Of a stretch of 64,000 nucleotides of DNA, positions 2,108 to 20,113 are shown piece after piece (position 1 is the stretch's first letter; each line of letters opens with the position of its first letter). A program made the translations under genes and the position numbers. The notes under the pieces were generated by a model. It was given only the letters and a program-made list of their open reading frames with translations, was not told the DNA's origin and did not search any database. This DNA is from Alphaproteobacteria bacterium. Lineage in GTDB: Bacteria; Pseudomonadota; Alphaproteobacteria; JAQWUY01. The DNA lies in NCBI GenBank assembly GCA_965232465.1, contig OZ246977.1, forward strand, positions 2,502,135 through 2,566,134. The letters are read 5' to 3'.

Positions 2108-2722
2108 ATGATTATTTTATCACATCGGGGATATTGGCACCACCCCCACGAAAAAAACACTGCGGCGGCTTTCCATCGGTCGTTTTCCATGGGATTTGGC
2201 ACTGAAATGGATGTGCGGGATGGCAATAACACATTGGTTATAGCACACGACATACCCACAGGCAATGAAATATCACTTGCCCAAATGTTGGATATATATT
2301 GTCAATACGATATGTCTCTGCCGCTTGCCATTAACATTAAAGCGGACGGATTGCAACCGATGCTGTGCGATCTGTTACACCGATACAAAATCCGCAATTA
2401 TTTTTTATTCGACATGTCGGTGCCCGATCATATTGTGTCATTAAAGCACAAACTCACCTGTTTTACCCGTCACAGCGAATATGAAAACTGCCCTTTATAT
2501 GACCCATCACACGGTGTGTGGATGGATACTTTCACAGACGATTGGATCCATGTGCACAGCGTGAAAAAACACTTGCAAAACAATAAAAAAGTTTGTATTG
2601 TATCCCCAGAACTGCACAGACGCAAGCACCTTGACACATGGCATACATATGCCGATTTACCCCGTCAGGTGATGCTGTGTACAGATTACCCCGAACGGGC
2701 AAAGGACTTTTTTAATGGTTGA
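2108..2722 (+). CDS. Glycerophosphodiester phosphodiesterase (GDPD) family protein.
   Basis: N-terminal ILSHRGY...EKNTAAAF...G...EMDVRDGNNTLVIAHD resembles the GDPD signature (HRG...ENTLxAF...ExDV...DG...V.HD). Confidence 0.55.
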   Translation: MIILSHRGYWHHPHEKNTAAAFHRSFSMGFGTEMDVRDGNNTLVIAHDIPTGNEISLAQMLDIYCQYDMSLPLAINIKADGLQPMLCDLLHRYKIRNYFLFDMSVPDHIVSLKHKLTCFTRHSEYENCPLYDPSHGVWMDTFTDDWIHVHSVKKHLQNNKKVCIVSPELHRRKHLDTWHTYADLPRQVMLCTDYPERAKDFFNG

Positions 2723-3341
2723 TATTAAGGCTATTATTTTTGATATGGATGGGGTATTGGTGGATGCCCGGGATTGGCATTATGAAGCCCTGAACAAAGC
2801 CCTGATGTTATTTGGGGCGGAAATATCCCGTCAAGACCACTTGACGACCTATGATGGATTGCCCACCAAAGATAAATTAAAAATGCTTAGCAAAGCCACC
2901 GGATTTCCAACCGGATTACACGATTTTATCAACGAAATGAAACAAAAATATACCCTGCAAGTTATCAACGAAAAAGCCAACCCTACTTTTGAACACGAAT
3001 ATGCCCTGTCCCGATTGTATGCACAGGGGTATAAATTAGCGGTTGCTAGCAACTCAATTTATAATACTATTGATATTTTAATGGAAAAATGTGCCCTGCA
3101 ACCATACTTAGAATTTTTCTTGTCCAACGAAGATGTAAAAATGGGCAAACCCAACCCAGAAATTTATACCAAAGCCATACATAAACTGGGTTTAAGCCCA
3201 CAACAATGTGTTATCATAGAAGACAATGTCAACGGTATCAAAGCCGCCACCGCCGCCGGGGGACATGTGATGCAGGTTGCCAATCCGTCACAAGTTACAT
3301 ACGATGCCATTATGGCTTTTATCAAAGGCATAAAGGGGTAA
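2715..3341 (+). CDS. HAD-superfamily hydrolase (subfamily IA, beta-phosphoglucomutase/phosphatase-like).
   Basis: Motif I IIFDMDGVLVD at the N-terminus. A C-terminal motif IV-like segment IIEDNVNGIKAATAAG. Overlaps the upstream gene by 8 bp, suggesting an operon. Confidence 0.7.
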   Translation: MVDIKAIIFDMDGVLVDARDWHYEALNKALMLFGAEISRQDHLTTYDGLPTKDKLKMLSKATGFPTGLHDFINEMKQKYTLQVINEKANPTFEHEYALSRLYAQGYKLAVASNSIYNTIDILMEKCALQPYLEFFLSNEDVKMGKPNPEIYTKAIHKLGLSPQQCVIIEDNVNGIKAATAAGGHVMQVANPSQVTYDAIMAFIKGIKG

Positions 3342-3345
3342 TACT

Positions 3346-4419
3346 GTGTTAAATATCTTATTACCGCTCAGCAAAATAAACACCGTGCATAATGGGCATC
3401 AAGACATACCGATTATATCCTTACGCATCAAGGGAAAAACTTTACTCGAATGGGCATTAGAACCCTTTTTAAAACTGCCTAATACGCATATTTGTGCCAT
3501 ACTTGGCAACGATATGCACACCCCATCGATTGCCCAAAACTTGCCGGACACCGTATCGATTTTACACACCCAAGGGGATACACGGGGTGCCACCTGTACC
3601 TGTTTATATGCCCACGATATATTAAATGCAGGATTGCCATTATTGGTGTCGTCTCTTGACCATTTTATATCCTTAGATGTACATGCCATGACAACACATT
3701 TACAGGCACAACAGGTCGATGCAAGCAGTGTCATTTTCCCCTCAGATGGCAACCCCATATATTCATATGCGGAAATCCGCAATGGCAAAATTACCCGTGC
3801 CTTAGAAAAACAAAGTATCACCAATACCGCCATGGCGGGTGTATATTATTTTAGCACCACAAACACATTTTTTGACCACGCAAAAAACCTTATTCGCAAA
3901 CAAACCACCCAATATCAGGACGGATATTTTATATCCGGCGTTTTAAACGAAATGGTATTGTCCGGATTGGATGTGGTGCCATATGAACAGCCCGATTTAT
4001 CATATTTTAAGGTATATGACATACCCAGCTACAACACATTATGTGATTTTATGCAGTCGGATGGGCATATGGAAAATACTATGGATACTGTCCATATACA
4101 TAAATTACGGGACTTTGTCAGGGGTTGGATAGTGGGGGACTTCAGCCCATCGTTGTATAAAACCCAAGATTTTGAATGTGCCATACAACGGTTTACCAAA
4201 GGACAAAAAGAAGCTGTACATACCCATAAAATTGCCACAGAAATCACTGTCATAATCTCAGGACGGGCGGAGATGTGCGGTAAACAGGTGGTCGCAGGCG
4301 ATATAATTGTTGTCAAACCCTATGAATACACGGGTTTTGAGGCACTGGAGGACACTGTAACAGCCGTTGTCAAAATCCCCGGGGCAAAAAACGACAAATA
4401 TAGTAAAGACACCTTATGA
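3346..4419 (+). CDS. Two-domain protein: a degenerate nucleotidyltransferase-like N-domain (G-rich loop lost) fused to a C-terminal cupin resembling FdtA/WxcM-type sugar 3,4-ketoisomerases.
   Basis: The N-terminal ILLPLSK...IPIISLRIKGKTLLEWALEP parallels the adjacent paralog IVIPMAGLGSRF...PKPLIPIHKKPMI but lacks GxGxR. The C-terminal AVHTHKIATEITVIISGRAEM...GDIIVVKP is cupin-like with a His-x-His pair. GTG start assumed. Confidence 0.4.
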   Translation: MLNILLPLSKINTVHNGHQDIPIISLRIKGKTLLEWALEPFLKLPNTHICAILGNDMHTPSIAQNLPDTVSILHTQGDTRGATCTCLYAHDILNAGLPLLVSSLDHFISLDVHAMTTHLQAQQVDASSVIFPSDGNPIYSYAEIRNGKITRALEKQSITNTAMAGVYYFSTTNTFFDHAKNLIRKQTTQYQDGYFISGVLNEMVLSGLDVVPYEQPDLSYFKVYDIPSYNTLCDFMQSDGHMENTMDTVHIHKLRDFVRGWIVGDFSPSLYKTQDFECAIQRFTKGQKEAVHTHKIATEITVIISGRAEMCGKQVVAGDIIVVKPYEYTGFEALEDTVTAVVKIPGAKNDKYSKDTL

Positions 4420-5165
4420 TACACATTGTTATTCCCATGGCTGGCTTAGGGTCACGGTTTGCCCAAGCCGGATACATAGACCCCAAGCCCTTAATTCCCA
4501 TACACAAAAAGCCCATGATACAGGTAGTGATTGACAATTTAACCCCCGATTGTGCGCATCATTTTATCTTTATTGTCCAAAAAACCCATATGGAATGGTA
4601 TAATTTGGATACCTGTTTACAACAATATGCACCCGATTGTACCATTATACCCATAGATTACACCACCGAAGGGGCGGCATGTAGCGTATTATTGGCACAG
4701 CATATTATCAACACCGACACCCCGTTAATGATTGCCAACTGTGACCAGTTCGTCGATGTAAATATTACCCAATACCTAGAGTCTATGGGCGATTTTGATG
4801 GGTATATTATGACATTCAAAGACAATGCGGATAAATGGTCTTATATTCAATACGATGACGAGGGCAATATTATCGGTGTGGTTGAAAAACAAGTGGTGTC
4901 CCATGACGCCACCGTGGGCATATATAATTTTGCCAAAGGGGCGGATTTTGTTACATACGCCCATACCATGATACAACAAAACTTACGGGTTAAGGGGGAA
5001 TTTTATGTGGCACCTGTGTATACCATGATGGTTGCCGATGGCAAAAAACTGGGCATATATGACATGAGCCAACACAACCAACACATGTACGGATTGGGCG
5101 TTCCCGAAGATGTACAATATTTTTTAAAACATCCCATATCCGATTTTTTAAAACGGGATATATAA
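4416..5165 (+). CDS. Sugar-phosphate/phosphocholine nucleotidyltransferase (LicC/MobA-like NTP-transferase fold).
   Basis: IVIPMAGLGSRF...PKPLIPIHKKPMIQ matches the N-terminal NTP-transferase signature. ATGA overlap with the upstream gene suggests translational coupling. Confidence 0.6.
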   Translation: MIHIVIPMAGLGSRFAQAGYIDPKPLIPIHKKPMIQVVIDNLTPDCAHHFIFIVQKTHMEWYNLDTCLQQYAPDCTIIPIDYTTEGAACSVLLAQHIINTDTPLMIANCDQFVDVNITQYLESMGDFDGYIMTFKDNADKWSYIQYDDEGNIIGVVEKQVVSHDATVGIYNFAKGADFVTYAHTMIQQNLRVKGEFYVAPVYTMMVADGKKLGIYDMSQHNQHMYGLGVPEDVQYFLKHPISDFLKRDI

Positions 5166-5417
5166 TACAAAATTGTATATTGATAAACGGGGTGTCAATG
5201 ACTTGATACAGGTTACATAAATGACACTTTACTTTTTTAATGAACGATGTATAATGGAATATATGAGGACAATGTGATATGAATAAAAAAGAAATTTTAA
5301 TTTGGATAGTATTAGAGTAATCGGTAGCGGTTTAGGTGCGGTTGTCGTTACTGTAACAAGTAAACATAGCGACTGCTTATACCATGCAGTACTTAGGATT
5401 GGATAAGGATTAAAACT

Positions 5418-5513
5418 ATGGGAACAATAAGCGTATTTTTATTATTAGGGGCAGGCTGGATTATCGGTGCAGTTAGTTTTGCCATGTTACTTTATAAAAT
5501 TAAAAACGATTAA
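5418..5513 (+). CDS. Possible 31-aa hydrophobic single-pass membrane peptide (MGTISVFLLLGAGWIIGAVSFAMLLYKIKND).
   Basis: ATG preceded by AAGGA 8 nt upstream. Uninterrupted hydrophobic core. Not in the ORF track because it is shorter than 60 aa. No homology evidence. Confidence 0.3.
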   Translation: MGTISVFLLLGAGWIIGAVSFAMLLYKIKND

Positions 5514-5524
5514 ACTCTTATCCA

Positions 5525-6529
5525 TTGAAAAAGTTAAATAAGCAAGTGATACACCACAGCGACATTACTTTTGTTATGCAGGGACCTGTTGTTCCTGAAA
5601 CCAGCAAGGCTATGCAACAGATACAACAGATTATGCCCGAATCAAAAATCATTTTATCCACATGGCACAATCAAGATGTATCAGACATTGCGTGTGATGG
5701 TATCATTGAAAATGATGACCCCGGGACACTCGATGGCGGACCAGAGCCATATTTTAATAATGTCAATCGGATGATTGTTTCCACCCGTAATGGATTGCAA
5801 CGGGTAACAACAAAATACGCTGTTCGCATCCGTACCGACAGCACCATTAAAAACGATACTTTTATACCATTGTATGAAAAAATGATGGCATCAGGACATG
5901 CACAACCCAGTTGGTTTAAACACCCTATTATGGTAATTTGTTATAGGGAATTTTTGGTAACCCCTTATCTTGTTGGCGACCCGTTTCATTTTGGCTTAAC
6001 ATCCGATGTATTAAACTTGTGGGACATTCCATTGGCAACGCAACAACAGGCAGAATATTTTAAAAATAAAAAATGTAAAAACAGTTTGTTAAGACCATGG
6101 TATTTATCCAGTAAAAGATTTTATCCACAATATTTTGGACCCGAACAATATTTAATGTGTATGTTTTTACAAAAATGTCACATTGACATAGATTATACAC
6201 ATCATCAAGATAATATTACAATTTATAAAACCATACGCAGTATAAAGGGTATCATACATAATTTTTTTCTTGTGGCACAAGATGATATTCCACTGCATTG
6301 TTATAAATACCCTGAAACAGACCCAGAACCTATGGTGCAATTTTGGTACAAAATGCACACACTGCCCCCCCCCCAATGGATATTTTTTGTATATAGCCTA
6401 AGACGCAAAAAACGCAGAACTTATGTAAGACGCACATATGGCGAAACAGCATATAAAATATACAAAAATACAGGGAAAATAATATTCATTCTGCTGTTAT
6501 TATCTGTTGTATTTTTTTATATCATTTGA
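5525..6529 (+). CDS. WavE-like LPS-biosynthesis family protein (tentative). Contains a C10 tract near the 3' end.
   Basis: N-terminal ITFVMQGP...ILSTW resembles my recollection of the WavE family (Pfam PF07507). TTG start per the ORF track. Sits in the glycan locus. Sequence after the poly-C is low-complexity (RRKKRRTYVRRTY...), compatible with an alternative frame after slippage. Confidence 0.35.
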   Translation: MKKLNKQVIHHSDITFVMQGPVVPETSKAMQQIQQIMPESKIILSTWHNQDVSDIACDGIIENDDPGTLDGGPEPYFNNVNRMIVSTRNGLQRVTTKYAVRIRTDSTIKNDTFIPLYEKMMASGHAQPSWFKHPIMVICYREFLVTPYLVGDPFHFGLTSDVLNLWDIPLATQQQAEYFKNKKCKNSLLRPWYLSSKRFYPQYFGPEQYLMCMFLQKCHIDIDYTHHQDNITIYKTIRSIKGIIHNFFLVAQDDIPLHCYKYPETDPEPMVQFWYKMHTLPPPQWIFFVYSLRRKKRRTYVRRTYGETAYKIYKNTGKIIFILLLLSVVFFYII

Positions 6530-6540
6530 AACATTTTCCC

Positions 6541-6562
6541 CCCATGTCCAAATGGGGGGTGT
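6541..6562. terminator. Perfect hairpin CCCCCCAT-GTCCAA-ATGGGGGG between convergent genes. Probable bidirectional terminator.
   Basis: 8-bp GC-rich stem with 6-nt loop, 12 bp after the WavE-like stop and upstream (in DNA) of the convergent GT gene stop at 6698. Confidence 0.5.
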
Positions 6563-6697
6563 CATGTGCCAAACATATTATAGAAATTAATTGACCATCA
6601 GATAATTATAATCTTATCAAAATCGATGTATACACTCAGTATAACACCCTAAAAAATACAGTGCCTGTATTGGTGGGGGGTGTTGCTGATATCCCGT

Positions 6698-8662
6698 TTA
6701 ATAAAATTGTAAAAAACGGCGTTTTAACGATTTTAAATTCCAATATTTTTTATACAACCGTAAGCATATATACAACACAATTTTTCCCATAATACCTTTA
6801 ACCCAAAACGGTTTTTTAAAATCCTGTGTTTCCATAAGATTGCGTAGTTGCACCCCGATGTTTTCCATACTTTGCCGGCGGATATATGGGCTGTCGACAA
6901 AGGGATTGTCCAATATATACGATTGGTATAATTCTGGATCCTTATCCACTTGTGCAATATATGCCATAGCCTGTTCAAAACTATCAAAATCTTTTACATT
7001 AATAAACGCCTCAGCCTTGATATAATTATAAATGTTATCGCCCCCCCAATATATGGGAATTGCCCCCGCCCGCAACGCCATAAATGCTTTTTCAGAAAAA
7101 CTGTAATAGTCCTTATTATTTTCAATACACAAAGAAAACCGATACTGTTCAATGATATGATGCATGTCCATATCAGCAGTAATAGTCCCTTTTTCGGTTT
7201 TTAAGGTGCTGATATTACGGTACTGTCGCCCCCATGAATGCACTGTATTATAAAATTGTTTTTGCATTTTTTTATACAATCGGTTGCGCACGCCCGCATA
7301 TTTATTGCCATACATAAATATGCAAAAATGGCGTTTTTGGTGCGGGTATCGGGACACAAAATCAGGATTTTTTCCATCGAGAAAATTAAATAAGTCATCG
7401 CCCACAAATAACAAATGCCATAATATATCATGGTGATCGAAATTGCTTATCATAATATCGGTAAAGGGCAAACGGGGGATAAAATGCTCGCCCCCCACCA
7501 ATACCCTAATACAATCATATTTGTACATATCATTGCTTGTAATATCATAAAACGCAATATCAGGATTGTCATTTACCCACTGTATAGTATACAATTTTCC
7601 CAACATCAACAGGGCAACATCTGTATGGCCATGATGACTTAACACCCGCAATGTCTTACGCTTGCAAGCCATTGGGCAAGCCATTGGGATAGCATACTGT
7701 GTAAAAATATGGTGTAATATACTATCTTGATAACAGTTGGGATAATATGTCAATTTATGTATATTATTTTTATGGGTGATTTTATGCCACAAATCGTCTG
7801 AGTATGGGGTGTGTATATGTGCGGACAATAAAGTGGGGTAAATATCGTCCATAATTTCACAATTATCATACCCATCAATAATCTCATGAAATAAAATTTG
7901 AAATAAAAAATAGTGCTTAAAATTTTTCTCATTTTTCCAATAATTACACAGGATTTGTACCAATTTTTCCATAACCTCATTATGCGGTTTGGCAACAATA
8001 AAACTGTTTAGCAATCGTACTTTAAAATCCTTATCCCATGAAAAATACTCTGGATTAAACTTGTGCCAATATTTATAATCCGCAGGCTTTTCCCCCCGTT
8101 GAAACATAAAAAAATCTTTGTCAAGCAACGTATTTGGAATTTTATCCGATAAATAAAGGGTCGCATCACACCATACCCCCCCATATGCGGACAACAAACA
8201 CACCCGCAATATATCAGAAAAAAAAGTATAGGTAAAATGACGATTATTATACAGTTTATCATATATAAAATCCGGCAGGTCAATATAATCGGCGATGGTA
8301 TCGTTGGTTAAAACGATGACTTCGTACTCCCCCCTGTGTTGGTGTACACTTGCCATACATGCCCGTACAATATGAGGGGTGTTTTTATCAATCCCCTGCC
8401 CCCAATATTGCCAAATGATTTTTTTGTGTTGTAAATCTTGTTGCACAGGTATATCAAAGTGTTGTATATCCTTTTGAATATATTTTCGCTGTAAATATCG
8501 TGCCACCTTTTGCTGATCGGGTATAATTTTTGCCCACCGATATTTTTGTTTTATCTTTTTGCGTACACGCTTAATGGGCATCATTTTATACAGTATAAAC
8601 AACAGGTATATATACATTACCAGCCCCCAAATCTTTTGCGTTTTGACATGACTGTTTTCCAA
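6698..8662 (-). CDS. Bifunctional glycosyltransferase: N-terminal GT32-like (Gly_transf_sug, DXD) domain plus C-terminal GT10 alpha-1,3/4-fucosyltransferase-like domain.
   Basis: The N-half FSDILRVCLLSAYGGVWCDATLYL matches the GT32/OCH1-like motif (sDllRyxxLyxyGGiYxDxD). The C-half CIENNKDYYSFSEKAFMALRAGAIPIYWG matches the GT10 motif (FENS...YVTEK...A...PIYWG). The true start may be Met16 at 8617, which would remove the 46-bp overlap with the upstream gene. Confidence 0.65.
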   Translation of the reverse strand: MENSHVKTQKIWGLVMYIYLLFILYKMMPIKRVRKKIKQKYRWAKIIPDQQKVARYLQRKYIQKDIQHFDIPVQQDLQHKKIIWQYWGQGIDKNTPHIVRACMASVHQHRGEYEVIVLTNDTIADYIDLPDFIYDKLYNNRHFTYTFFSDILRVCLLSAYGGVWCDATLYLSDKIPNTLLDKDFFMFQRGEKPADYKYWHKFNPEYFSWDKDFKVRLLNSFIVAKPHNEVMEKLVQILCNYWKNEKNFKHYFLFQILFHEIIDGYDNCEIMDDIYPTLLSAHIHTPYSDDLWHKITHKNNIHKLTYYPNCYQDSILHHIFTQYAIPMACPMACKRKTLRVLSHHGHTDVALLMLGKLYTIQWVNDNPDIAFYDITSNDMYKYDCIRVLVGGEHFIPRLPFTDIMISNFDHHDILWHLLFVGDDLFNFLDGKNPDFVSRYPHQKRHFCIFMYGNKYAGVRNRLYKKMQKQFYNTVHSWGRQYRNISTLKTEKGTITADMDMHHIIEQYRFSLCIENNKDYYSFSEKAFMALRAGAIPIYWGGDNIYNYIKAEAFINVKDFDSFEQAMAYIAQVDKDPELYQSYILDNPFVDSPYIRRQSMENIGVQLRNLMETQDFKKPFWVKGIMGKIVLYICLRLYKKYWNLKSLKRRFLQFY

Positions 8663-9636: not shown

Positions 9637-9732
9637 ATGTATAATAATCCTTTATGTGCATTGACACTTGTACAATAAAACAATATACTGAATGGCACTA
9701 TAACACAGTACAAGGTAAAAAGGATATTTTTT

Positions 9733-10491: not shown

Positions 10492-10513
10492 ATGTAATAC
10501 CATATGGCACAAT

Positions 10514-11344
10514 TTAATGCCCATGAAAATTTTTGCTGATGTATACTGTATAAAAGTATTTTAAGGATTGTTCTGTATTTTTCCCCATAGTTTTTATATG
10601 AAATACCTTGTACATAATCCAGCCAAATATATAATATGGTGTTAAGATAATTTTTCCTACCGCCCGTAAAGTTTGTCGATACTGTTTTTTGTTGTTATTG
10701 CTAATGGTATTTTTACGCATGCTTTCTATTGCAGAATCATGCATAGTCAAAGGCGGTTGCTGAATAAGCTTTGGGGATGTAAAAACCGCATATGTATTGA
10801 CATCCAAGGGCCAATCCGCCATATGCACAATGGGGGTGTTTTGTATTCTTAACATATTTGCCATATGGATATTGATATAATATCCCCCTGTACAATACGC
10901 TTCGCCAACGGACGTATACAGACGGTACTTTTTATATAATTTTTCACCTGTATCAAAGATACTCTTTCGTACCCGAAAGTGATTAAAGATTATAAAACTG
11001 TGGGGGCTTTTTTGTAGTATTTTTCGTCGGATAATAGGGTCAAACGCATCGTCTATGATGGCATCATCTTCCAGTATGACACAATCTGTGATATTTTCAT
11101 CGACAATTTTTTGATATACCAATACATGTGACAACGCACAGCATATTTCCACATCGTGCATATCCCGTCCCACATTTTTACGGGCGGTTTTTGTGTCCAC
11201 CATATGGGTATAACATTCGGGAATACCCTGTCGTCCATCCACTGCGTCAAAAAATTCAAAATCCAACCCCAAGGCACTGAGCCTGTTACGAATAGAGTTA
11301 CGCCTGTTATGTGCATCAGACAGGCTAATGACAAAAATTTTCAC
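10514..11344 (-). CDS. GT25 family LPS/LOS glycosyltransferase (LgtB/Lic2A-like beta-1,4-galactosyltransferase family).
   Basis: The N-terminus KIFVISLSDAHNRRNSIRNRLSALGLDFEFFDAVDG is the typical GT25 start (IxVINLxxSxxRR...L...Gi.fEfFdAVdG). Confidence 0.75.
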   Translation of the reverse strand: MKIFVISLSDAHNRRNSIRNRLSALGLDFEFFDAVDGRQGIPECYTHMVDTKTARKNVGRDMHDVEICCALSHVLVYQKIVDENITDCVILEDDAIIDDAFDPIIRRKILQKSPHSFIIFNHFRVRKSIFDTGEKLYKKYRLYTSVGEAYCTGGYYINIHMANMLRIQNTPIVHMADWPLDVNTYAVFTSPKLIQQPPLTMHDSAIESMRKNTISNNNKKQYRQTLRAVGKIILTPYYIFGWIMYKVFHIKTMGKNTEQSLKYFYTVYISKNFHGH

Positions 11345-12130
11345 CTATTCGCCCTCGACTGTGGGCGACACAACCACAGAAAACGGTTTTTTCAATTTAT
11401 AACGCAGTGTATAAGACACACCGAGTCTGCCAAAAAATGATCCCGCAAAGCGTTTACGAATATGGTGTTTTCGCATGTTTTCTATTTGTGATTGGCTCAG
11501 GCTGGGGTGGGTGATAAGCCGGGGCGTAACCACTTGGGCGGGTATGGCGGTAATATCCGTAAACCAATCGGACACATAGGATATGGGGAATACTGTATGG
11601 GCAAATTGCGTAGCGGTGGGCAAATCCACATAATACCCTACCGCCCCAGCACAGTTGTTTATAACAGGGGCAATACTATACCCCCCCCATAAGGGATGTT
11701 GTTGTGATGGGATAATGCGGGCATACAGGTGGTATAACAACACAAACCCTGCCGTATGGTTTGGCAAAATATCCTGCTTAATGATGTGGACAAAATCCAT
11801 ATCACACAAAAAATCATCTTCCAAAATAATGCTGTGGGCGATATTTTCTGTTACAATCTTTTCGTATAACAACGCATGGCTTAACGCACAACACATTTCC
11901 ACATCTGATACCATGCGCCGTAAGTTCTTGTCCATAGCCGGGCGATCAATCCGCTGTATATACGCATCGGGCACCCCCTGTGTACCATCCACCGCATCAA
12001 AAAATTCAAATTCCAGCCCCAACTTTTGCATCTTTTCAAGTACCACCCGACGGCGTTTAGTGGCATCACGCAAAGATATGATATATATTTTTATATCAGG
12101 CATGGTCATATCATTTCTTGTCATCGTCAT
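11345..12130 (-). CDS. GT25 family LPS/LOS glycosyltransferase, tandem paralog. Contains a G8/C8 tract at 11691-11698.
   Basis: KIYIISLRDATKRRRVVLEKMQKLGLEFEFFDAVDG is the same GT25 N-terminal signature. Confidence 0.75.
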   Translation of the reverse strand: MTMTRNDMTMPDIKIYIISLRDATKRRRVVLEKMQKLGLEFEFFDAVDGTQGVPDAYIQRIDRPAMDKNLRRMVSDVEMCCALSHALLYEKIVTENIAHSIILEDDFLCDMDFVHIIKQDILPNHTAGFVLLYHLYARIIPSQQHPLWGGYSIAPVINNCAGAVGYYVDLPTATQFAHTVFPISYVSDWFTDITAIPAQVVTPRLITHPSLSQSQIENMRKHHIRKRFAGSFFGRLGVSYTLRYKLKKPFSVVVSPTVEGE

Positions 12131-12351
12131 ATGTACTCTGTTACTTTACATATAGGCTGTAGAGTATTTTGATTTATGTATTTTTCCATACATTATATGG
12201 TACCACATATAAATCGTTTTGTCTATTATTAAACCGTGACCAAGCCATCAAAATAGACCCTAATCACGCCGACACCTATTGACCTGCCCCCTATAAATAG
12301 GTCCAAAATTAAGTTAGTATTGATTTATCTAAATTATGAAAGGATTTTAAG

Positions 12352-12636
12352 ATGTCAAAGAATAGGAAAGCCCGCAGTATAGAACAAATTATCCATATAT
12401 TACGGGATGCAGAGATTAAGTTATCGTCAGGTATGACAGTCAGTGTTATGTGCCGTGATTTAGGTATATCGGATGCGACTTATTACAAGTGGCGCAAACA
12501 ATATGGTGGTATGGATGTTAATCATGCCAAAGATTTAAAAGCATTATTGGATGAGAATACCCGTTTAAAGAAGCTTGTTGCTGATTTGAGTTTAGACAAT
12601 CAAATCTTAAAGGAATTTAACTCGGGAAAGTGGTAG
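12352..12636 (+). CDS. IS3-family transposase OrfA (HTH and leucine-zipper).
   Basis: 94-aa product with ...[14 protein letters not shown]...[17 protein letters not shown], typical of IS3 OrfA. A GGGAAAG slippery heptamer at 12624-12630 precedes the stop. Confidence 0.8.
12624..12630 (+). promoter_or_regulatory. Putative -1 programmed ribosomal frameshift heptamer G_GGA_AAG joining IS3 orfA to orfB.
   Basis: X_XXY_YYZ pattern in the orfA frame, 4 nt before the orfA stop. orfB frame open from 12621. A G7 run follows at 12643-12649. Confidence 0.45.
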
Positions 12637-13505
12637 GTGATGGGGGGGTAAAAAGCTTTATTGGCAAAGCCAAGTCTTTTTACAATGTATCAGAACGGCG
12701 ATTATGTAGTTTATTCAGGACACATCGCTCTACGGTTCGTTATGTGAAACGAGATGTTGATGAGGAAAGCCGTTTAATATCAGATATGCACCGTCTAGCA
12801 CAAAAATACCCTAGATATGGTTATCGGCGGATATGTGCCTTATTAAAAGGTTATGGTTGGTGTGTAAACCATAAGCGGATTGAACGGCTTTGGAAACAGG
12901 AGGGATTACAAGTGCCACAGAAAATACCCAAACCCCGTAGTTCAAATGCTGGTGATGGGAGCTGTATTAAACTTCGTCCTGAGTATCAAAATCATGTATG
13001 GAGTTATGACTTTGTGCATGACAAGCTGAGAAATGGTAAAGGCATTAAAATATTAACGGTTATAGATGAACATAGCCGAGAATGCTTAACCATTGATGTG
13101 CGGCATAAACTGAACAGTACGGATGTATTGGATATTATGGGCAGGTTGTTTATCACAAAAGGTATGCCTAAGCATATCCGTTCTGACAATGGATCTGAAT
13201 TTATAGCCCATAGGCTACAAGGTTGGTTGAAGCGTATGCAGGTGGGTACAGCATACATTGATAAGGGCAGTCCATGGCAGAACGGTTATAATGAAAGTTT
13301 TAATGGTAAACTTCGGGACGAGTGCTTGAACAGGGAGATATTTGATACTTTAACTGAGGCACAAGCCATTATAGAAAACTGGCGGTATGAATACAATCAT
13401 ATCCGTCCACATAGTGCGTTAGGGTACAATCCACCAGTGCCAAAAATGCAACCCATTGTCAATGATATCCGTCATTCCGCTACGCTACATGACAAATATC
13501 ATTGA
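12630..13505 (+). CDS. IS3-family transposase OrfB (DDE integrase core), expressed by a -1 frameshift fusion with OrfA.
   Basis: [12 protein letters not shown]...[13 protein letters not shown]...[13 protein letters not shown]...[22 protein letters not shown] is a classic rve/DDE integrase signature. It is in the -1 frame relative to orfA and is open from 12621. Confidence 0.85.
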
Positions 13506-13547
13506 CAATAGAGAAAAAAAGTACTAACCTAAAAATGGACCAAATCA

Positions 13548-14173
13548 GTGGGGCTGGTCACCCCTTGGCGTGACTTACCGCCTGATTTAGGGGATTGGAG
13601 TAACACGCACCGTCGTTTTATCCGCTGGCGTGATAAGGGGATATGGGAAAAGTTGTTGGAAATTTTAGTTACAGATCCGGATTATGAATGGTTAATAATA
13701 GACGCTAGTCATTGTAAGGTGCATCCTCATGCATCTGGTGCACTAGGCGGTAATCAAGATATGAGCCGCACAAAAGGGGGCTCAACACGAAGATACATTT
13801 GGCCGTGGATGCGCATGGTATGCCGGTCAGAATACTTATTACGAACGGTACCACAGCTGATTGCACACAAGCAGGCAGATTGATTGAAGGCATCAGTGCA
13901 GAGTATTTGTTGGCAGATAAGGGATATGATAGTGAGCATATCATACACCTAGCAAAACAACAAGGTATAGAGCCTGTTATTCCCCCAAGAAAGAATCGCA
14001 AAGAACAAAGGGAGTATGATGAACACCTGTATCATTGGCGGTGCTTAGTGGAAAATGCGTTTCTACACCTAAAACGATGGCGTGGTATTGCAACAAGATA
14101 CGCTAAAAACACCACTTCATTTCTCGCCGCTGTACAAATCAGATGCATCGCATTATGGACAAAAATCTCGTGA
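13548..14173 (+). pseudogene. IS5-family (IS427-group-like) transposase remnant. It is N-terminally truncated by the IS3 insertion and split across two frames (13548-13883 and 13799-14173).
   Basis: WRDLPPDLGDWSNTHRRFIRWRDKGIWEKLLEIL and LADKGYDSE...IPPRKNRK...VENAFLHLKRWRGIATRYAK match IS5/DDE_Tnp_1 family segments. The start abuts the IS3 IRR. The first ~60 aa of a full-length protein are missing. Confidence 0.65.
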
Positions 14174-14180
14174 CTACACT

Positions 14181-14256
14181 ATCTAGCTGCCCCCTATAAA
14201 TTGATCCAAAATTAAGTTAGTATAATTTATATGTAAATTAAGAAAGGATTATAAGA
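14181..14256 (+). repeat. Degenerate second copy of the IS3 left end (IRL plus orfA ribosome-binding region).
   Basis: CTGCCCCCTATAAATTGATCCAAAATTAAGTTAGTAT...GAAAGGATTATAAGATTTG is a direct repeat of 12283-12355 (about 85% identity by eye). Confidence 0.6.
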
Positions 14257-14293
14257 TTTGGCTATTGTGGCAAAACCCCATTGCCTGCCCATG

Positions 14294-15052
14294 TTACAGC
14301 TGTTTACAATCCAAATACTGCTGCATTGTATGACATTCAAAGGTGCCATTAGCTGTTTTTAGCATAGCACCTTTAAGCGGTGGAAAGTACATGGCACGAA
14401 TAAAGCGGGCAACTGTACCATCGTCCCAATGCGGGTTAATGATACCCTCATATGGCAATTTATTCATATAGTATGTGCCTTTTGTAACCCTATTATCAAA
14501 TCGGGTATTATTTTCACAAGCCTGTATCACCTGTCCAATTTTTGCCAACCCTTGTGAAAAAATTTCATAGTACAATTGCTGGGCGTTTTTATCGGCAATC
14601 TCAATATCGCCTCGTAATAAAATATCCCCTGCATCAATCTTTTTATCCATGATATGCCAAGTGTATCCCACATATTTTTCTTGATGTATAATCGACCAAC
14701 ATGTGGAAAAACATCCTTGATAATAAGGCAACCGCCCAGGATGAAAATTGATATTTTCCTTGTGGGCATATTGCAATGCTTGTGGTGATAATATGCGATG
14801 CCACGACACACTTAAAATGTAATCGTACGAAGTCTGTGCCAAAATATCTTCGTATGCCCCTTGTTTTGGGCGTAAAACATACCCAACACCAATATATTTT
14901 AAAAATTCTACATAAGGACGGTTGGTGGGCTGATCGCTGAATGATATGCACAAAATATCTTGTAACGACACGCCATTTGCCAACAGCTGCCACAAACTGA
15001 ATATAGCCTGCGACCCTTGTGACAACAAAACAAATTTATAGTGTGTATTCAT
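14294..15052 (-). CDS. Formyltransferase-domain protein (sugar N-formyltransferase / Fmt-like).
   Basis: NFHPGRLPYYQG corresponds to the formyl_trans_N active-site region (N.HxSLLPxxRG). Located within the glycan locus. Confidence 0.6.
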   Translation of the reverse strand: MNTHYKFVLLSQGSQAIFSLWQLLANGVSLQDILCISFSDQPTNRPYVEFLKYIGVGYVLRPKQGAYEDILAQTSYDYILSVSWHRILSPQALQYAHKENINFHPGRLPYYQGCFSTCWSIIHQEKYVGYTWHIMDKKIDAGDILLRGDIEIADKNAQQLYYEIFSQGLAKIGQVIQACENNTRFDNRVTKGTYYMNKLPYEGIINPHWDDGTVARFIRAMYFPPLKGAMLKTANGTFECHTMQQYLDCKQL

Positions 15053-15339
15053 GTGGTAAAAACGATGTCGGTGATTATATAGTCAATTAAATTTAATTTG
15101 ATTGACAAAATGCGGTTGCAACCGCTTGCCACGCAGTGGCATTGTGGTGCAGAGCGGGGTGAGTGCGTGTGGTATTTTGTCATGCGAAGCATGGGTAAAT
15201 CCACATTAAACGCACGAGGGGCGTTAGCCCCTTGGACTCACGATATAACCAACGAAATAAAATGTGCAGTATAATCATGGTGAATCATTTTATACCGAAT
15301 TGACTATATCCGAATGTTGTATATGAAAATCAAATGCCA

Positions 15340-16395
15340 TTATGTCCATCTGTGAATTAAAAATTTACCAAAATGTATGCCTTTTTTCTCAATATAGGTA
15401 TATGTCCCCCAACATACTAAGGTGGTGGGTATTAAGGTTAACACCATTCCCACCAACCCATACGCCAAACCGCCATATACTTTTAATGCACTGGCAAGGG
15501 CGGCAACAAATGTCGGATGAATTAAATATATACTAAAACTTAATATGCCCATTAAACGCATAAACTTATTATCAAACAAAGGGGTTTTTGTATAGGCAAC
15601 AGACATCATAAAAATCCCATATAACACCGCCATAATGGCAAAATGAAATACACCTAGTCCCGCCTGGTCATCGACCCATAGGGTCAAGATAAATATCAGG
15701 GGCATTGCCCAATAATTATGCAATAGCTGTATACCCCGTTGTTGCATTATCAAATGATGTACATATCCCCCCACAACAAACATGACCGCTTGCCCAAAAA
15801 TAAAATATATGTGAAACGGATAGCGCAATACAGACACCATCTGATCCCACAATATGCCCACACCTGCACACACCACAACCAACCACCACTTGTGCATATA
15901 GGGTACCAACAACGGGAACAGCAAATAAAAAGTAAATTCTAAGTCAATGGTTGTGCCGGCGGGGGCGTAACTGCCCATACTATATGGGGCAAAATCGGTT
16001 AAAAATAACAATGATAATATGAACCGTACCATATCAAACGGATCATTTCCCGATACCACAGCCACCAATATAGCAACATACATCATGGGTGCCAAACGGA
16101 AAAATCGGCGGATAAGAAAATCCCGAATTTTATGGGGGGATCGCTTATAATAATGCCACATATAACACATGGTAAAGCCACTTATCACATAAAATAACTG
16201 CACCCCCCATGTACCATTGCCAAAAATCAATCCCATATGGTGCTCAGATACCAACGATATGCCTTGTTGGTTACCCAAATGCACCTTTACCCACACATGA
16301 ATCCCCACAACCAGCAAAATCGCCCATCCCCGCAAGCCATCAAGCCACCCTAAGCGTACAGCCGGGGATTGCAAAGATGTCGTGTTATGGGGCAT
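15340..16395 (-). CDS. Acyltransferase family 3 (OafA/NolL-like O-acetyltransferase) integral membrane protein.
   Basis: N-terminus RLGWLDGLRGWAILLVVGIHV is a typical acyltransferase-3 start. The rest is multi-pass hydrophobic. Confidence 0.7.
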   Translation of the reverse strand: MPHNTTSLQSPAVRLGWLDGLRGWAILLVVGIHVWVKVHLGNQQGISLVSEHHMGLIFGNGTWGVQLFYVISGFTMCYMWHYYKRSPHKIRDFLIRRFFRLAPMMYVAILVAVVSGNDPFDMVRFILSLLFLTDFAPYSMGSYAPAGTTIDLEFTFYLLFPLLVPYMHKWWLVVVCAGVGILWDQMVSVLRYPFHIYFIFGQAVMFVVGGYVHHLIMQQRGIQLLHNYWAMPLIFILTLWVDDQAGLGVFHFAIMAVLYGIFMMSVAYTKTPLFDNKFMRLMGILSFSIYLIHPTFVAALASALKVYGGLAYGLVGMVLTLIPTTLVCWGTYTYIEKKGIHFGKFLIHRWT

Positions 16396-16756
16396 CCTTC
16401 AACGCCCCCATAATCTGTGTTGTTTCCGATTGTGGTTCTGTGCCGGGAATACCGCCAAATGTGATCCATCTTGGCTGCTCACATCGGTGATAAATGCTGT
16501 TTTTGTCATTATAGTGATATATCCTTAAAAATTCATGGCATAAAAAAACCCCTGTGAATATAACAAAACCGCATCATATTTACAACAACAAAAAACTAAC
16601 GAAGCAATGGGGGATTTTTGGGTATTTCATCGCCATTATATAAACACAAACTGCCCAGTATCCAATACATGTAAAGAAAATATACCGCTGTTTTGTCGTT
16701 CCATACAGGGTTTTAAAACGGGGGGTATAGCTCATATATGTCGTTTTCACATCCCC

Positions 16757-17677
16757 CTAAAATGGCACTGGTATTGTGTGCCAATCAGGGGGTAACAATT
16801 CGTCTTCGGGGGTGCCGTTTTTTAACCATGGGGTTGGGGATATGACCCTTTTATTGGGGTGTTGGTTGATATACGCCCCCCACCACGAATAGGTGCTGTT
16901 GGTAATAATATTATGCGTACATTTGCCCATCAGGATTATATCTTCAAAATCAGGTGCTTTGCCTTTGCTGTCCACATAAACAGGATTGGGCAGAAAATCC
17001 AAGTTATTACGACACCAATCTTGATCCATAGAAAACACAAACGGGCGGGCATTGGGGTATTTTTCGCTTACCTGTTGCCATGCCTGTTGAAAATATTGTG
17101 CCGATGGGATGTTATAAAAGGTATCCTCAAAATCATCCCGCCGTACATGTAAAGACACGGCATTTTTTTCAGATTCAATACAGCGGAGTATACCTTTGCT
17201 AAATGGACTGAGCGGGTGTTTAGGGGTCACAGTTTCCAACAAGATAGGTCTTACCGCATCCGCATACACATGATTTTGAAAAAAACCACAGGCAATCCGT
17301 CCTAAGAAGACCTCTGTATCCGATGTGTGGTAAAACAATTCATAATACTTTTTTCTTTTAAATTTGGTTAACATATACAGCAATTTACCCCACCTGCCCT
17401 GTAAGTAATTATCGGAAAATAGGGTTTCTGTATCAATGTTAAAGGCTTTTTCTAATTCTTGGTGTATGCAGAATGCTTTTTCACCTATGAGAATACGATC
17501 GTGATAGGTATGCACCACTTTTACCCCATGTTTTTGTGCCAAATACACCCCAAATGCATAAGCAAACAACTGATTCCCCCACCCCCCAGCAATGCGAATA
17601 ATCACAGTATCCTTGCCAGTGCATAGTATCTTAAAAAAATCCCGTACTGTACGGTTTGCCACCATATGGTTTGCCAT
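16757..17677 (-). CDS. GT11 family alpha-1,2-fucosyltransferase.
   Basis: IIRIAGGWGNQLFAYAFG matches GT11 motif I (GGLGNQMFQYA). SLHVRRDDFE matches the HVRRGDY motif. Confidence 0.75.
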   Translation of the reverse strand: MANHMVANRTVRDFFKILCTGKDTVIIRIAGGWGNQLFAYAFGVYLAQKHGVKVVHTYHDRILIGEKAFCIHQELEKAFNIDTETLFSDNYLQGRWGKLLYMLTKFKRKKYYELFYHTSDTEVFLGRIACGFFQNHVYADAVRPILLETVTPKHPLSPFSKGILRCIESEKNAVSLHVRRDDFEDTFYNIPSAQYFQQAWQQVSEKYPNARPFVFSMDQDWCRNNLDFLPNPVYVDSKGKAPDFEDIILMGKCTHNIITNSTYSWWGAYINQHPNKRVISPTPWLKNGTPEDELLPPDWHTIPVPF

Positions 17678-17683
17678 AGCGTA

Positions 17684-18514
17684 TCACTTTTGCAACTTAT
17701 TAGATGTAAATTGACGGGTAAAATATCCCCAAATGCCCCCATGTCGCCATATTTTTTCGGGTATCATTGCCAATTTATAGCGCAATCTACGCCATTTATT
17801 ACGATTGGCAACACGCGCAGATTTTAAAAATGTATCTGGGGGTACACCCTGTTGTTCATACCCATACATTATATCAGATTTGACCAAAGGCACCCCTTCC
17901 ATCAATGCCACCAAGCCAAACACCGGCTGATCATGGCGGTGCATTTCAAAGTTAGGCAGTTCTTCGCCTAATTTTGAACGGCTATCGCTGATAATATCAT
18001 ACTGTGTTGCATAGTACAGACATTTTTCAATAAATTGTATACTGTAATCAGATTTACGCCAAATATTAAAATTTCCTGCAATCATCGGGGCATTATGGGC
18101 TTCGGGGGTATCACAGCCCATTAAAATAAAAGTATCCCGTTTACAACGGGTATTACAATTTTCCCCCATATCAAACATCACCACATCCTGATTATAGTGT
18201 TCAGGCATACGAAAAACAGGGGTTAAGTCTTTGAGTACCATAGTACCACTATCCGCATAAAAAATAACATCGCCATTTTGTATATCATCCCGCAATAAAG
18301 TTTTGCGGATAATATATGGTTTCCACAGCCAATACCCCGCCCCACGGGTTTTATTTAATATTTTTTTATGTTTGCGATAAAAATCTATATCAATATCATC
18401 GGGGGTGTACGATATAACCCGGTCTACTTTCCCTATATTCAGGGCGGATTCTGTATTGCGGACTTGTTGTACCGTAAAATCTTGATTGGCATAATTTATA
18501 AATATTTTCTGCAC
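17684..18514 (-). CDS. Hypothetical protein, putative glycosyltransferase of the glycan locus.
   Basis: 276 aa. Segments GAGYWLWKPYII and DVIFYADSGT look nucleotide-sugar transferase-like. No confident family assignment. Confidence 0.35.
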   Translation of the reverse strand: MQKIFINYANQDFTVQQVRNTESALNIGKVDRVISYTPDDIDIDFYRKHKKILNKTRGAGYWLWKPYIIRKTLLRDDIQNGDVIFYADSGTMVLKDLTPVFRMPEHYNQDVVMFDMGENCNTRCKRDTFILMGCDTPEAHNAPMIAGNFNIWRKSDYSIQFIEKCLYYATQYDIISDSRSKLGEELPNFEMHRHDQPVFGLVALMEGVPLVKSDIMYGYEQQGVPPDTFLKSARVANRNKWRRLRYKLAMIPEKIWRHGGIWGYFTRQFTSNKLQK

Positions 18515-18517
18515 GCC

Positions 18518-19933
18518 CTATTCCCGTCCATATATATCTTCGTACCGTACAATATCTTCTTCGCCCAAATACTCGCCCGTTTGCACTTCGATAAGGACTA
18601 TGGGGGTTTTGGTGGTGTTGCGTAATCTGTGCTTGTTGCCCTGTGGAATGTATATGGATTCGTTGGCGTTTAATGTCATGGTGGTGTCGCCATTGGTAAC
18701 AGTTGCCACCCCCATAACCACCACCCAATGTTCAGAACGATGCCGATGTGATTGCAAAGATAGCTGTTGATTCGGGTATACAAGTATCTGTTTTACCTTG
18801 TATGTATCGCCTTCATCAAGAATCGTAAAAGTCCCCCACGGACGGTATTCTGTGTGATGGATTTCCACTGTGGGGTGTTTTTGTTGTGTCAAAGTATTGA
18901 CAATATGTTTTATCCCCTGTAATTTGTTATTATCCGCCACCAACATAGCATCACGGGTTTCCACAATGGTTACATTATCCAGCCCCACAGTGGCAATTAA
19001 CTTATCATGGGAAGTGGAAAAAATATTGGTATTTTGTGTATCGTGCATGACCACATCGGATACATCCCGTACACGGTTATTGTGTTTATCAATGGGCAAG
19101 GTTTCGGCAACGCTGTCCCATGCCCCCAAATCGTTCCAATCAAAATCAGCGGGGACAACCGCCACTTTGTGCGATTTTTCCATCACCGCATAATCCACGG
19201 ATATATCAGGCATATGGGCAAATACATCCGCATCAATAACAACATCTTTATCGTTCACACTGACCTTATGGACAACGGACGCTACATCGGGGGCGTGTTC
19301 ACTTAGCTGTTGCAGATATGTATCCGTGGCAAACACAAACATACCCGCATTCCAAAAATAATCCCCCCTATCCATATACAGTTTTGCCCTGTTCACATCA
19401 GGTTTTTCCACAAACTGTGCCACCGCATACCCCCCCGGCACCCCATCGCCTCGCTTGATATAGCCATATCCTGTATGCGGTTGGGTCGGCACTATCCCTA
19501 ATGTTACCAAATATCCATTATGGGCAATTTTTACAGCAGATTCAATGCACTTATGGAACCGGGGTATATCGTGAATAATATGGTCACTGGGCAACACCAC
19601 CACAATAACATTGTCGCCAAAGTGATGCTTGGCATAGGCACAGGCAATCCCGACCGCCCCCGCCGTGTTTTTGCCAAAGGGTTCAAAAATATTATGGCAT
19701 ATAAACCCCATATCACATACCACATTATGCACAGCAAAACGGTATTTTTTGTTGCTTACCGATATAATATCAGTTATAGAATCGTTAAAATTATGAATAC
19801 GGCGAAAAGTATTGGCAAGCAAAGATCCCGAATTTTCCGCCCACATAAACGGTTTTGGGCGTGCCGAACGGGACACAGGCCACAACCGTGACCCCACCCC
19901 CCCAGACAGTATAACAGGTACTATTTTTTGCAT
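18518..19933 (-). CDS. manC: Mannose-1-phosphate guanylyltransferase / mannose-6-phosphate isomerase (bifunctional ManC/XanB type).
   Basis: N-terminal VPVILSGGVGSRLWPVSR NTP-transferase motif. C-terminal cupin ESIYIPQGNKHRLRNTTKTPIVLIEVQTGEYLGEEDIVRYEDIYGR. ATG at 19933 preferred over the upstream TTG at 19969. Confidence 0.85.
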   Translation of the reverse strand: MQKIVPVILSGGVGSRLWPVSRSARPKPFMWAENSGSLLANTFRRIHNFNDSITDIISVSNKKYRFAVHNVVCDMGFICHNIFEPFGKNTAGAVGIACAYAKHHFGDNVIVVVLPSDHIIHDIPRFHKCIESAVKIAHNGYLVTLGIVPTQPHTGYGYIKRGDGVPGGYAVAQFVEKPDVNRAKLYMDRGDYFWNAGMFVFATDTYLQQLSEHAPDVASVVHKVSVNDKDVVIDADVFAHMPDISVDYAVMEKSHKVAVVPADFDWNDLGAWDSVAETLPIDKHNNRVRDVSDVVMHDTQNTNIFSTSHDKLIATVGLDNVTIVETRDAMLVADNNKLQGIKHIVNTLTQQKHPTVEIHHTEYRPWGTFTILDEGDTYKVKQILVYPNQQLSLQSHRHRSEHWVVVMGVATVTNGDTTMTLNANESIYIPQGNKHRLRNTTKTPIVLIEVQTGEYLGEEDIVRYEDIYGRE

Positions 19934-20113
19934 AAAAGTACATATATCATATTCATATATGATAAACAACTTAAATATTTATCATAAAAACTATGTTGCT
20001 CAAAAGGGAATATGGTGGGTACAGAAAATGTGCACCCTGCCTGTATAAGGTGGGAAGTGTTGTTTTATATGCTTTTCTGGTTATAAAACCATGGTTATAA
20101 AACTACTTGGCGT

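Follow-up and report, generated by a model that had tools for sequence, protein, structure and literature searches.

We examined a 64-kb stretch of contig OZ246977.1 from an uncultured alphaproteobacterium (hereafter the window, meaning the whole stretch analysed) and found that its region between positions 2108 and 19969 (the locus) is a genuine surface-sugar gene island with fucosyltransferase-type enzymes. The locus is a partly eroded glycan island of a well-known kind, the lipooligosaccharide/lipopolysaccharide (LOS/LPS) type. We favor, at a probability of about 0.55, a LOS/LPS outer-core or short O-chain island in which maintained transferases stand beside dead sugar-nucleotide genes.

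The open reading frames (ORFs) were searched against Pfam and NCBIfam profiles, and sequence searches of PDB were used to look for solved relatives. The core families were matched at the positions given in Table 1 with E-values far past chance. A preliminary description of this DNA had listed two GT10 domains, one GT11 gene and two GT25 genes (GT, glycosyltransferase) together with manC, and all of these assignments hold: their scores exceed the Pfam or NCBIfam cut-offs (Pfam gathering cut-offs of 23.9 bits for PF00852, 23.9 for PF01531 and 24 for PF01755), and GT10 and GT11 keep their family motifs. The locus contains at least seven intact and recognizable glycosyltransferase modules, namely two GT25, two GT10, one GT32-like, one GT11 and one WavE. 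In sequence searches both GT10 modules matched Helicobacter pylori FucT (2NZW), human FUT9 and FucTs of plants. The stand-alone GT10 protein matches 7YRO and 2NZW at E 1e-8, and the module at 6698-8662 matches 2NZW at E 1e-12 with the R, N and E-K residues kept. An alignment of nine GT10 sequences from the island and its relatives has invariant columns that include E60, R133, E197-N198, E207-K208 and P219/Y221/G223, which fall on the N-domain Glu, on the Arg that binds GDP-fucose in 2NZW and in the FEN, SEK and PIYWG motifs. Equivalents are thus kept of the H. pylori FucT residues that we take to be E95 (catalytic, in the N-domain) and R195, N240, E249 and K250 (donor-binding). The GT25 family, to which the tandem pair of genes belongs, also includes glucosyltransferases. 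The GT11 translation contains GGWGNQLFAYA, HVRRDDF and STYSWWGAYI, the HxRRxD motif being present as HVRRDD; this motif is critical in alpha1,2- and alpha1,6-fucosyltransferases, and one GT11 member is an alpha1,3 enzyme (PMC4202792). Family membership alone fixes neither acceptor nor linkage, and the GDP-binding residues in GT10 do not reveal which sugar is carried. Judged by their sequences, the two GT10s and the GT11 are credible members of fucosyltransferase families, with fucose transfer itself a prediction only.

One of the GT10 modules is the C-terminal part of a 654-aa protein whose public gene call begins at 8617. Homologues of its N-terminal Caps_synth (GT32-like) module are commonly fused to a second glycosyltransferase, either GT2, GT6, GT8, GT25 or HtrL/YibB. 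The window protein resembles these two-module enzymes in carrying a Caps_synth/Gly_transf_sug domain followed by a second glycosyltransferase module, and differs from them in that the second module is GT10. No other Caps_synth-GT10 protein was found among 37 word-index matches or among the best 150 matches from 1.84 billion representatives; the sole two-stretch GT10 protein among those listed matches is a GT10-GT10 tandem.

The sugar-nucleotide genes were compared with related loci fetched around manC and gmd. These loci form three lineages, L002, L082/L083 and L084-L086, of which L002 (OZ254962.1, 'MAG: Alphaproteobacteria bacterium', region 1-21410) comes from the closest genome that the species collection contains. 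In the window, the gmd relic consists of three collinear pieces, covering codons 1 to ~19, codons ~130-143 and the last 9 codons. It carries two internal deletions at microhomologies (short repeats) and has lost the original stop codon. Its Rossmann NAD(P) motif has changed from ITGVSGQDGSY, the form that is invariant in three relatives, to ITDVSSQDGSH. Likewise, codons 1-16 of an RmlC-like relic of the dTDP_sugar_isom family (MAFDFHIQHSDIVNSV, followed by a stop) align with MAIDFDIQQSDKIAGV of L002; nucleotide identity is ~75% over 60 nt, after which come stops and degraded sequence. This relic is syntenic with the relatives' gene, lying directly after the acyltransferase gene. A third relic, the C-terminal end of a sulfatase-domain gene, keeps its stop position and sits upstream of the gmd relic. 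We found no gmd beyond the relic and no fcl, DegT or LbH gene anywhere in the 64-kb window, using tblastn with the relatives' sequences and Pfam on the remaining ORFs; the Fcl queries from L082 and L084 gave zero tblastn matches.

Of the GDP-L-fucose pathway, the window therefore contains ManC, a 114-nt remnant of gmd and no fcl. The island genes are thus predicted to make GDP-mannose, not GDP-fucose. The preliminary description had manC feeding GDP-mannose toward GDP-fucose, a route that breaks down here: ManC is intact, gmd is dead and fcl is absent from the 64 kb. The same description had named the lack of a GDP-fucose pathway as a finding that would speak against it. Such a lack is what we see across the window. 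For the whole genome the evidence of loss is weak: no Gmd from the 2,630,883-bp source contig is among the best 120 Gmd matches and no Fcl from it among the best 120 Fcl matches, and thousands more matches existed.

A compound IS3/IS5 scar (IS, insertion sequence) lies between the formyltransferase and GT25 genes, where by sequence comparison the missing fcl and DegT genes would be expected. The IS3 element is bounded by imperfect terminal inverted repeats of the TG...CA type, TGACCTGCCCCC... and ...GGGGCTGGTCA. The IS5 fragment, whose PF13340 match starts at profile position 45 of 76, adjoins its right end. The IS3 left-end sequence occurs twice in the window in direct orientation, with 0 copies expected by chance. 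We considered and rejected a nesting of IS3 inside IS5: the repeated 80 nt are the IS3 left end, and IS5 is merely truncated by IS3. Both insertions listed at first are present, the IS3 intact and the IS5 as a fragment only.

The islands of all three related lineages carry manC, an intact gmd and downstream amino-sugar genes, with intact acylT3, RmlC-like, LbH and DegT genes. In two of the three (L082/83 and L084/85) there is, in addition, a homologue of fcl, which matches E. coli GFS (1E6U) at E 2e-61. The window shares cassettes with these relatives at 42-80% identity, without the 6-deoxyhexose genes. The comparison of locus content that had been proposed as a check thus shows relatives retaining gmd, and in two of three lineages fcl, where the window has relics. 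In L002 the gene order runs GT25, GT10, GT2, GT10, GT10, FkbM, GT11, GT10-like, carbamoyltransferase and manC, then methyltransferase, GINT1_N-like, a 288-aa protein, gmd, acylT3, acylT3 and RmlC-like, and ends with a 138-aa protein, LbH, LbH and DegT. The L002 island has four GT10-family genes and one GT11, and fcl was not found in the 21 kb of L002 that were fetched. L082/83 carry a cassette of WavE, HAD, a 358-aa protein, NTP_transferase, WavE and Wzx.

The fcl genes of the relatives are themselves damaged. In L082/L083 (4131-5049) fcl has a 1-nt insertion, CAAA[T]AAGG, relative to the 95%-identical P0160, and in L084/L085 (L084:4589-5489) a short deletion at almost the position of the L082 lesion shifts its frame. 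L086 is without the fcl segment, though its Gmd protein is identical to that of L084. A programmed +1 frameshift was rejected as an explanation, as P0160 reads through and the lesions are separate. As read from these lesions, fcl loss in the relatives is recurrent inactivation.

None of the four related loci shows an undamaged fcl, the gene being frameshifted, deleted or unseen, yet they retain between one and four GT10 genes whose catalytic residues are intact. This pattern would be expected if GT10, and perhaps GT11, of this clade used a non-fucose GDP-sugar, either GDP-mannose, in the genome analyzed here, or a GDP-4-acylamido-4,6-dideoxyhexose. In the relatives the acylamido sugar would arise via Gmd, the RmlC-like epimerase, DegT and an LbH or formyltransferase. 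ManC is kept in the window under purifying selection, in agreement with such a donor. We nevertheless regard this explanation as doubtful: the GDP-binding residues are mute on the sugar, the window's gmd is dead, so that an amino-sugar donor is also unavailable there, and fcl could sit elsewhere in L002. Furthermore, every characterized GT10 is, to our knowledge, a GDP-fucose-dependent alpha1,3/4-fucosyltransferase.

We next consider whether the transferases are maintained or are decaying like their neighbors. The relics carry ~8 replacements at otherwise conserved positions in ~58 retained codons, corresponding to ~0.03-0.1 per non-synonymous site. When random substitutions, and substitutions only, were simulated on the three fucosyltransferase-family ORFs (3.9 kb), the share of trials that left all three open was 30% at d=0.006, 4% at d=0.015 and 0.3% at d=0.031. 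In the window all three are intact with every catalytic residue, suggesting that the GT10 and GT11 genes are maintained by continued selection. The ratio of non-synonymous to synonymous divergence (dN/dS) against the L002 homologues is 0.12-0.19 with dS saturated (at least 1.15); we rejected it as a test of relaxed selection, since it shows long-term purifying selection only.

The simulation bears on a reading of pure decay, in which the fucose/6-deoxyhexose branch was lost genome-wide and GT10, GT11 and the formyltransferase are stranded, non-functional leftovers that disabling mutations have yet to reach, beside a truncated, non-fucosylated glycan. Three relics and the compound IS scar do lie within the same 5 kb, the source contig contributes neither a Gmd nor an Fcl to the best 120 matches of the respective search, and the fcl lesions of L082/83 and L084/85 and its deletion in L086 show that the clade has lost fucose synthesis more than once. 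An IS-rich genome with ankyrin proteins is, moreover, typical of decaying host-associated genomes. Pure decay is nonetheless unlikely in our estimate: neither the formyltransferase nor any of the three fucosyltransferase-family ORFs is disrupted or has lost a catalytic residue, and the simulation makes ORF intactness improbable under relic-like drift.

According to the reading we favor, maintained transferases beside dead sugar-nucleotide genes, the island would be homologous to the GT10-rich islands of related genomes and would represent a mosaic of kept glycosyltransferases and dead sugar-nucleotide genes. An ancestral 6-deoxyhexose branch would have begun with gmd, continued with the RmlC-like epimerase and a DegT aminotransferase and ended with an N-acyltransferase, components that are now relics or missing; fcl would have stood beside this branch, as it does in two of three related lineages. 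The glycan would be built stepwise on the cytoplasmic face by the island transferases; no Wzx, Wzy or Wzm/Wzt gene was found in the locus. GDP-mannose made by ManC is a plausible donor for the GT32-like module. If GT10 and GT11 are under selection, their donor must come from outside the island, and they may draw GDP-fucose, or another GDP-sugar, from genes beyond it. If a second gmd/fcl pair exists elsewhere, the decay of the local gmd would be accounted for as well. The donors are probably supplied by unlinked genes; the dedicated search spanned the 64-kb window of a 2.63-Mb genome.

Several points weigh against this reading. We infer the unlinked donor pathway, and the genome beyond the 64-kb window was seen only through the lists of the best 120 matches. 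The absence of the source contig from both lists mildly favors true loss. The glycan type (LOS, O-antigen or capsule) we infer solely from which gene families are present and from the lack of export genes, and two ORFs of the locus (252 and 276 aa) are uncharacterized. Furthermore, the argument for selection leans on few substitutions, short relics, a substitutions-only simulation and a saturated dS.

The preliminary description had gone further and taken this set of genes to be sufficient in principle for Lewis x/y-type epitopes, as in H. pylori. The Lewis machinery of H. pylori consists of the GT25 enzymes HP0826/HP0619, the N-acetylglucosamine (GlcNAc) transferase HP1105, the GT10 enzymes FutA/FutB and the GT11 enzyme FutC (PMC6892558). 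GDP-fucose is required there too, and H. pylori has gmd/fcl. Host mimicry of this kind would have the window's GT25s build N-acetyllactosamine (LacNAc) and its GT10 and GT11 enzymes fucosylate it. The shared families GT10, GT11 and GT25 and the conserved catalytic residues agree with this idea, and the ankyrin-repeat proteins hint at a eukaryotic host. The differences from H. pylori are substantial. With gmd a relic and fcl absent from the window, the locus also has no HP1105-like or LgtA-like GlcNAc-transferase, and no LacNAc-building GlcNAc-transferase was found by the GT8, GT2 and GT31 Pfam profiles among the locus ORFs, two of which are without a family. The GT10 modules share little sequence identity with H. 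pylori FucT (E 1e-8 to 1e-12), one of them is joined to a GT32-like module, and the fut-like genes are without phase-variable poly-C tracts. The window genes lie in one island, whereas the Lewis genes of H. pylori are presumably scattered across the genome. The acceptor cannot be read from the family, given the alpha1,3 enzyme in GT11 and the glucosyltransferases in GT25, and the relatives stem from several environmental metagenome assemblies. We consider working Lewis x/y mimicry highly improbable. With the donor pathway reduced to a relic and an essential type of transferase missing, the conclusion of a sufficient Lewis toolkit is unsupported, and nothing in the island specifies a Lewis-type product.

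Homopolymer tracts had likewise been taken as typical of a variable surface-antigen island. The tracts exist: the locus has C10 at 6365-6374, near the 3' end of the WavE gene, C8 at 11681, which is an in-frame G8 (11681-11688) in the second GT25 gene, and several 7-mers. L002 reads GGGGGCG at the G8 position. The fut-like genes contain no poly-C/G of at least 8, the longest being two C7 in GT10 and a 6-mer in GT11. Enrichment in the locus does not hold, as G/C runs of at least 7 occur at 0.39 per kb inside it and 0.37 per kb outside, and we rejected the tracts as a sign of a phase-variable island. The whole window has 24 such runs against ~13 expected (first-order Markov model; maximum 24 in 200 simulations), an excess of ~1.8-fold over the dinucleotide-aware expectation that extends across the window and is not concentrated in the glycan locus. 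L001 was considered as an independent assembly for tract lengths and proved uninformative, since it does not differ from the window at any of 20,921 bases. Outside the locus, the SH3-domain gene at 1549-2034 (+) has a G10, two bases and a G7 at 1618-1636 near its 5' end, a site that is possibly slippage-prone. An intergenic C13 tract with neighboring G7 runs is found at 35916-35928, just upstream of an IS256-family gene.

Other known systems offer partial parallels. The locus resembles E. coli O86/O127/O128 (manC-manB-gmd-fcl with the GT11 enzymes WbwK/WbiQ/WbsJ; blood-group mimicry) in having an HxRRxD GT11 near GDP-mannose genes. It differs in being without functional gmd/fcl, wzx and wzy, and its extra GT10, GT25 and WavE genes resemble an LOS core locus. 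With the LOS loci of Neisseria and Haemophilus (lgtB/lgtE and lic2A of GT25, with phase-variable homopolymers) and the wav core locus of Vibrio cholerae it shares the tandem GT25 genes, WavE, the lack of a polymerase or flippase and one G8 tract. In contrast to these, the G8 of the window is not kept in L002, homopolymers are not enriched and fucosyltransferase-family genes dominate.

A formyltransferase had been reported along with an FdtA-like cupin and taken to point to an N-formylated amino sugar. The gene is real and intact, and its best PDB matches are Brucella WbkC structures (5VYS/5VYR/5VYT, E 7e-30; 5VYS 6.6e-30, residues 9-236). ArnA is matched at E 4e-13 and other solved sugar N-formyltransferases at 1e-7 to 1e-10. 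By this similarity the enzyme would suit a GDP-amino-sugar branch that depends on Gmd rather than the Fdt pathway. Its WbkC-type partners are dead or missing: in the 64-kb window Gmd is a relic only, and a DegT perosamine synthase was not found. Since gmd is dead and there is no aminotransferase, an N-formyl amino sugar is predicted not to be made from island genes. The Brucella wbk region, in which manC, gmd, per and wbkC lead to GDP-N-formylperosamine, is thus paralleled by a WbkC-closest formyltransferase and manC in the window, and by gmd and a DegT aminotransferase in the related islands. The window differs from it in its gmd relic, its lack of an aminotransferase and of perosaminyltransferases, and the absence of Wzm/Wzt from the locus, and the relatives differ in carrying LbH acetyltransferases and not a formyltransferase.

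The remaining genes complete the island (Table 1). Like ManC, the O-acyltransferase gene is intact, and so is the conserved cassette of HAD, two nucleotidyltransferases and WavE. From 19969 downward the minus strand encodes ManC, the 276-aa protein, GT11, Acyl_transf_3, the formyltransferase, the IS cluster, two GT25s, GT10 and the 654-aa fusion. The plus strand encodes the 204-aa protein, HAD, the 357-aa protein, the nucleotidyltransferase and WavE, which ends at 6529. Housekeeping genes flank the island, with an SH3 protein on the left and DUF4167, MscS, PgsA and UvrC on the right.

Table 1. Genes, relics and insertion sequences of the glycan locus, in window coordinates. Percentages are identities to the loci named.
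Position	Strand	Feature	Evidence
2108..2722	+	204-aa protein, possibly GDPD-like phosphodiesterase	HRG..ENT..E.DV..HD motif; 58% identical to L082 250-aa protein
2715..3341	+	HAD-IA hydrolase, beta-phosphoglucomutase-like	PF13419 117.9 bits; TIGR02009 126 bits, under cut-off; 71% identical to L082 homologue
3346..4419	+	357-aa protein: nucleotidyltransferase-like N-terminal half, cupin-like C-terminal half	PF00483 17.3 bits (weak); 49% identical to L082 358-aa protein
4416..5165	+	Sugar-1-phosphate nucleotidyltransferase	PF00483 39.6 bits
5525..6529	+	WavE-family LPS-core type protein	PF07507 132.7 bits
6698..8662	-	Two-module glycosyltransferase: GT32-like Caps_synth (residues 49-318) and GT10 (residues 346-582)	Pfam: Caps_synth 232.7, FucT_N 36.6, PF00852 64.3 bits
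8617..9636	-	GT10-family glycosyltransferase, 339 aa	PF00852 62.9 bits
9733..10491	+	252-aa protein, no assigned function	Weak DUF7796 match only; 28% identical to L082 177-aa protein
10514..11344	-	GT25 glycosyltransferase	PF01755 115.4 bits
11345..12130	-	GT25 glycosyltransferase	PF01755 99.7 bits; 76% identical to L002 homologue, full length
12279..13560	+	Intact IS3-family element	orfA 12352-12636, orfB 12630-13505; HTH_Tnp_1, rve, rve_3
13561..14178	+	5'-truncated IS5-family fragment (DUF4096 C-terminal part and DDE domain)	PF13340, PF01609
14179..14257	+	Solo left end of a second IS3 copy	89% identical to 12276-12353
14294..15052	-	WbkC-like sugar N-formyltransferase (GDP-perosamine type), intact	PF00551
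15053..15340	-	RmlC-like (dTDP_sugar_isom family) epimerase relic	16 codons aligned to L002
15340..16395	-	Acyl_transf_3 membrane O-acyltransferase	PF01757 85.7 bits; 77% identical to L002
16396..16509	-	gmd (GDP-mannose 4,6-dehydratase) relic, 114 nt	tblastn/blastn against L002, L082 and L084 gmd
16602..16670	-	Sulfatase-domain gene, C-terminal relic	65% identical to last 23 residues of L082 9288-9941 protein
16757..17677	-	GT11 fucosyltransferase-family glycosyltransferase	PF01531 79.9 bits
17684..18514	-	276-aa conserved protein adjoining manC, no assigned function	74% identical to L002 288-aa protein
18518..19969	-	ManC, mannose-1-phosphate guanylyltransferase / mannose-6-phosphate isomerase	TIGR01479 541 bits, cut-off 373; 80% identical to L002 ManC

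Further decoration of the glycan had been proposed from the left-hand cassette and its neighbors. Pfam or NCBIfam matched the reported HAD, Acyl_transf_3 and formyltransferase genes and both nucleotidyltransferases, one of them (3346-4419) weakly. The nucleotidyltransferase at 4416-5165 had been called LicC-like, a label that is not specific: its best solved relative is the NDP-sugar pyrophosphorylase 4EVW (E 6e-19), its top matches are 4EVW, GlmU, GalU and RmlA-type enzymes, and LicC is not among its PDB matches. For the proposed GDPD the motif is present in the 204-aa protein; Pfam finds nothing there at E up to 1, and the sole PDB matches, all GDPD chains, are weak (E 0.05-1). The single-sequence AlphaFold2 model of this protein has a pLDDT of 40 and is unusable. 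Beyond this weak GDPD-like motif, nothing points to the suggested phosphocholine or glycerophosphate decoration. In place of the proposed FdtA-like cupin the locus has a cupin-like C-terminus of the 357-aa protein (...AVHTHKIATEITVIISG...) and the RmlC-like relic at 15053-15340. The PDB matches of the 357-aa protein are 4EVW (E 0.045) and 2Q30 (E 0.35). There is no intact FdtA-like gene: among the locus ORFs of 80 aa or more, none matches FdtA in Pfam. The 252-aa protein has no PDB or PADLOC match. The 276-aa protein has no match in Pfam, NCBIfam, PDB or PADLOC, and its single-sequence AlphaFold2 model (pLDDT 32) is likewise unusable. PADLOC on six unassigned ORFs gave nothing informative, and neither did Rfam over the whole window or a promoter and terminator scan.

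Elsewhere in the window, a 1316-aa protein at 31725-35675 (-) consists almost wholly of ankyrin repeats, and a 221-aa ankyrin-repeat protein is encoded at 37724-38389 (-). Host association is plausible because these two proteins lie nearby, and the organism is IS-rich and probably eukaryote-associated. An IS256-family (Mutator-type) transposase gene occupies 36359-37600 (+). A 329-aa Lys/Asn-rich protein at 34-1023 (+) has a weak NCBIfam Cas13e match (46.8 bits, cut-off 175) and one RNxxxH HEPN-like motif, RNNVQH, with no Pfam or PADLOC match. Two ORFs (374 and 276 aa) at 59891-61880 (-), in the part of the window with the lowest GC content (~33%), have no Pfam or PADLOC match.

Had the Lewis idea held, Lewis-antigen mimicry would have been extended beyond Helicobacter to an alphaproteobacterium that is uncultured and probably associated with a eukaryote. 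The actual picture is more ordinary, with transferases that outlived the island's own sugar-nucleotide genes, and it is a caution against predicting a glycan solely from the glycosyltransferase families of a locus. The two-module enzyme joining GT32-like and GT10 domains may be of interest to glycoenzymologists. So may the one pattern that possibly hides something new, namely that fcl has been lost repeatedly in the clade next to GT10 genes that were kept. The GT10s of this clade might in practice not be fucosyltransferases, transferring mannose or a fucose-like 4-acylamido-4,6-dideoxy-L-hexose, or recurrent loss of fucose synthesis might be adaptive, with the epitope switched off; we hold either to be rather improbable. 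The locus provides a concrete, small case of the erosion of a surface-glycan locus in IS-rich genomes.

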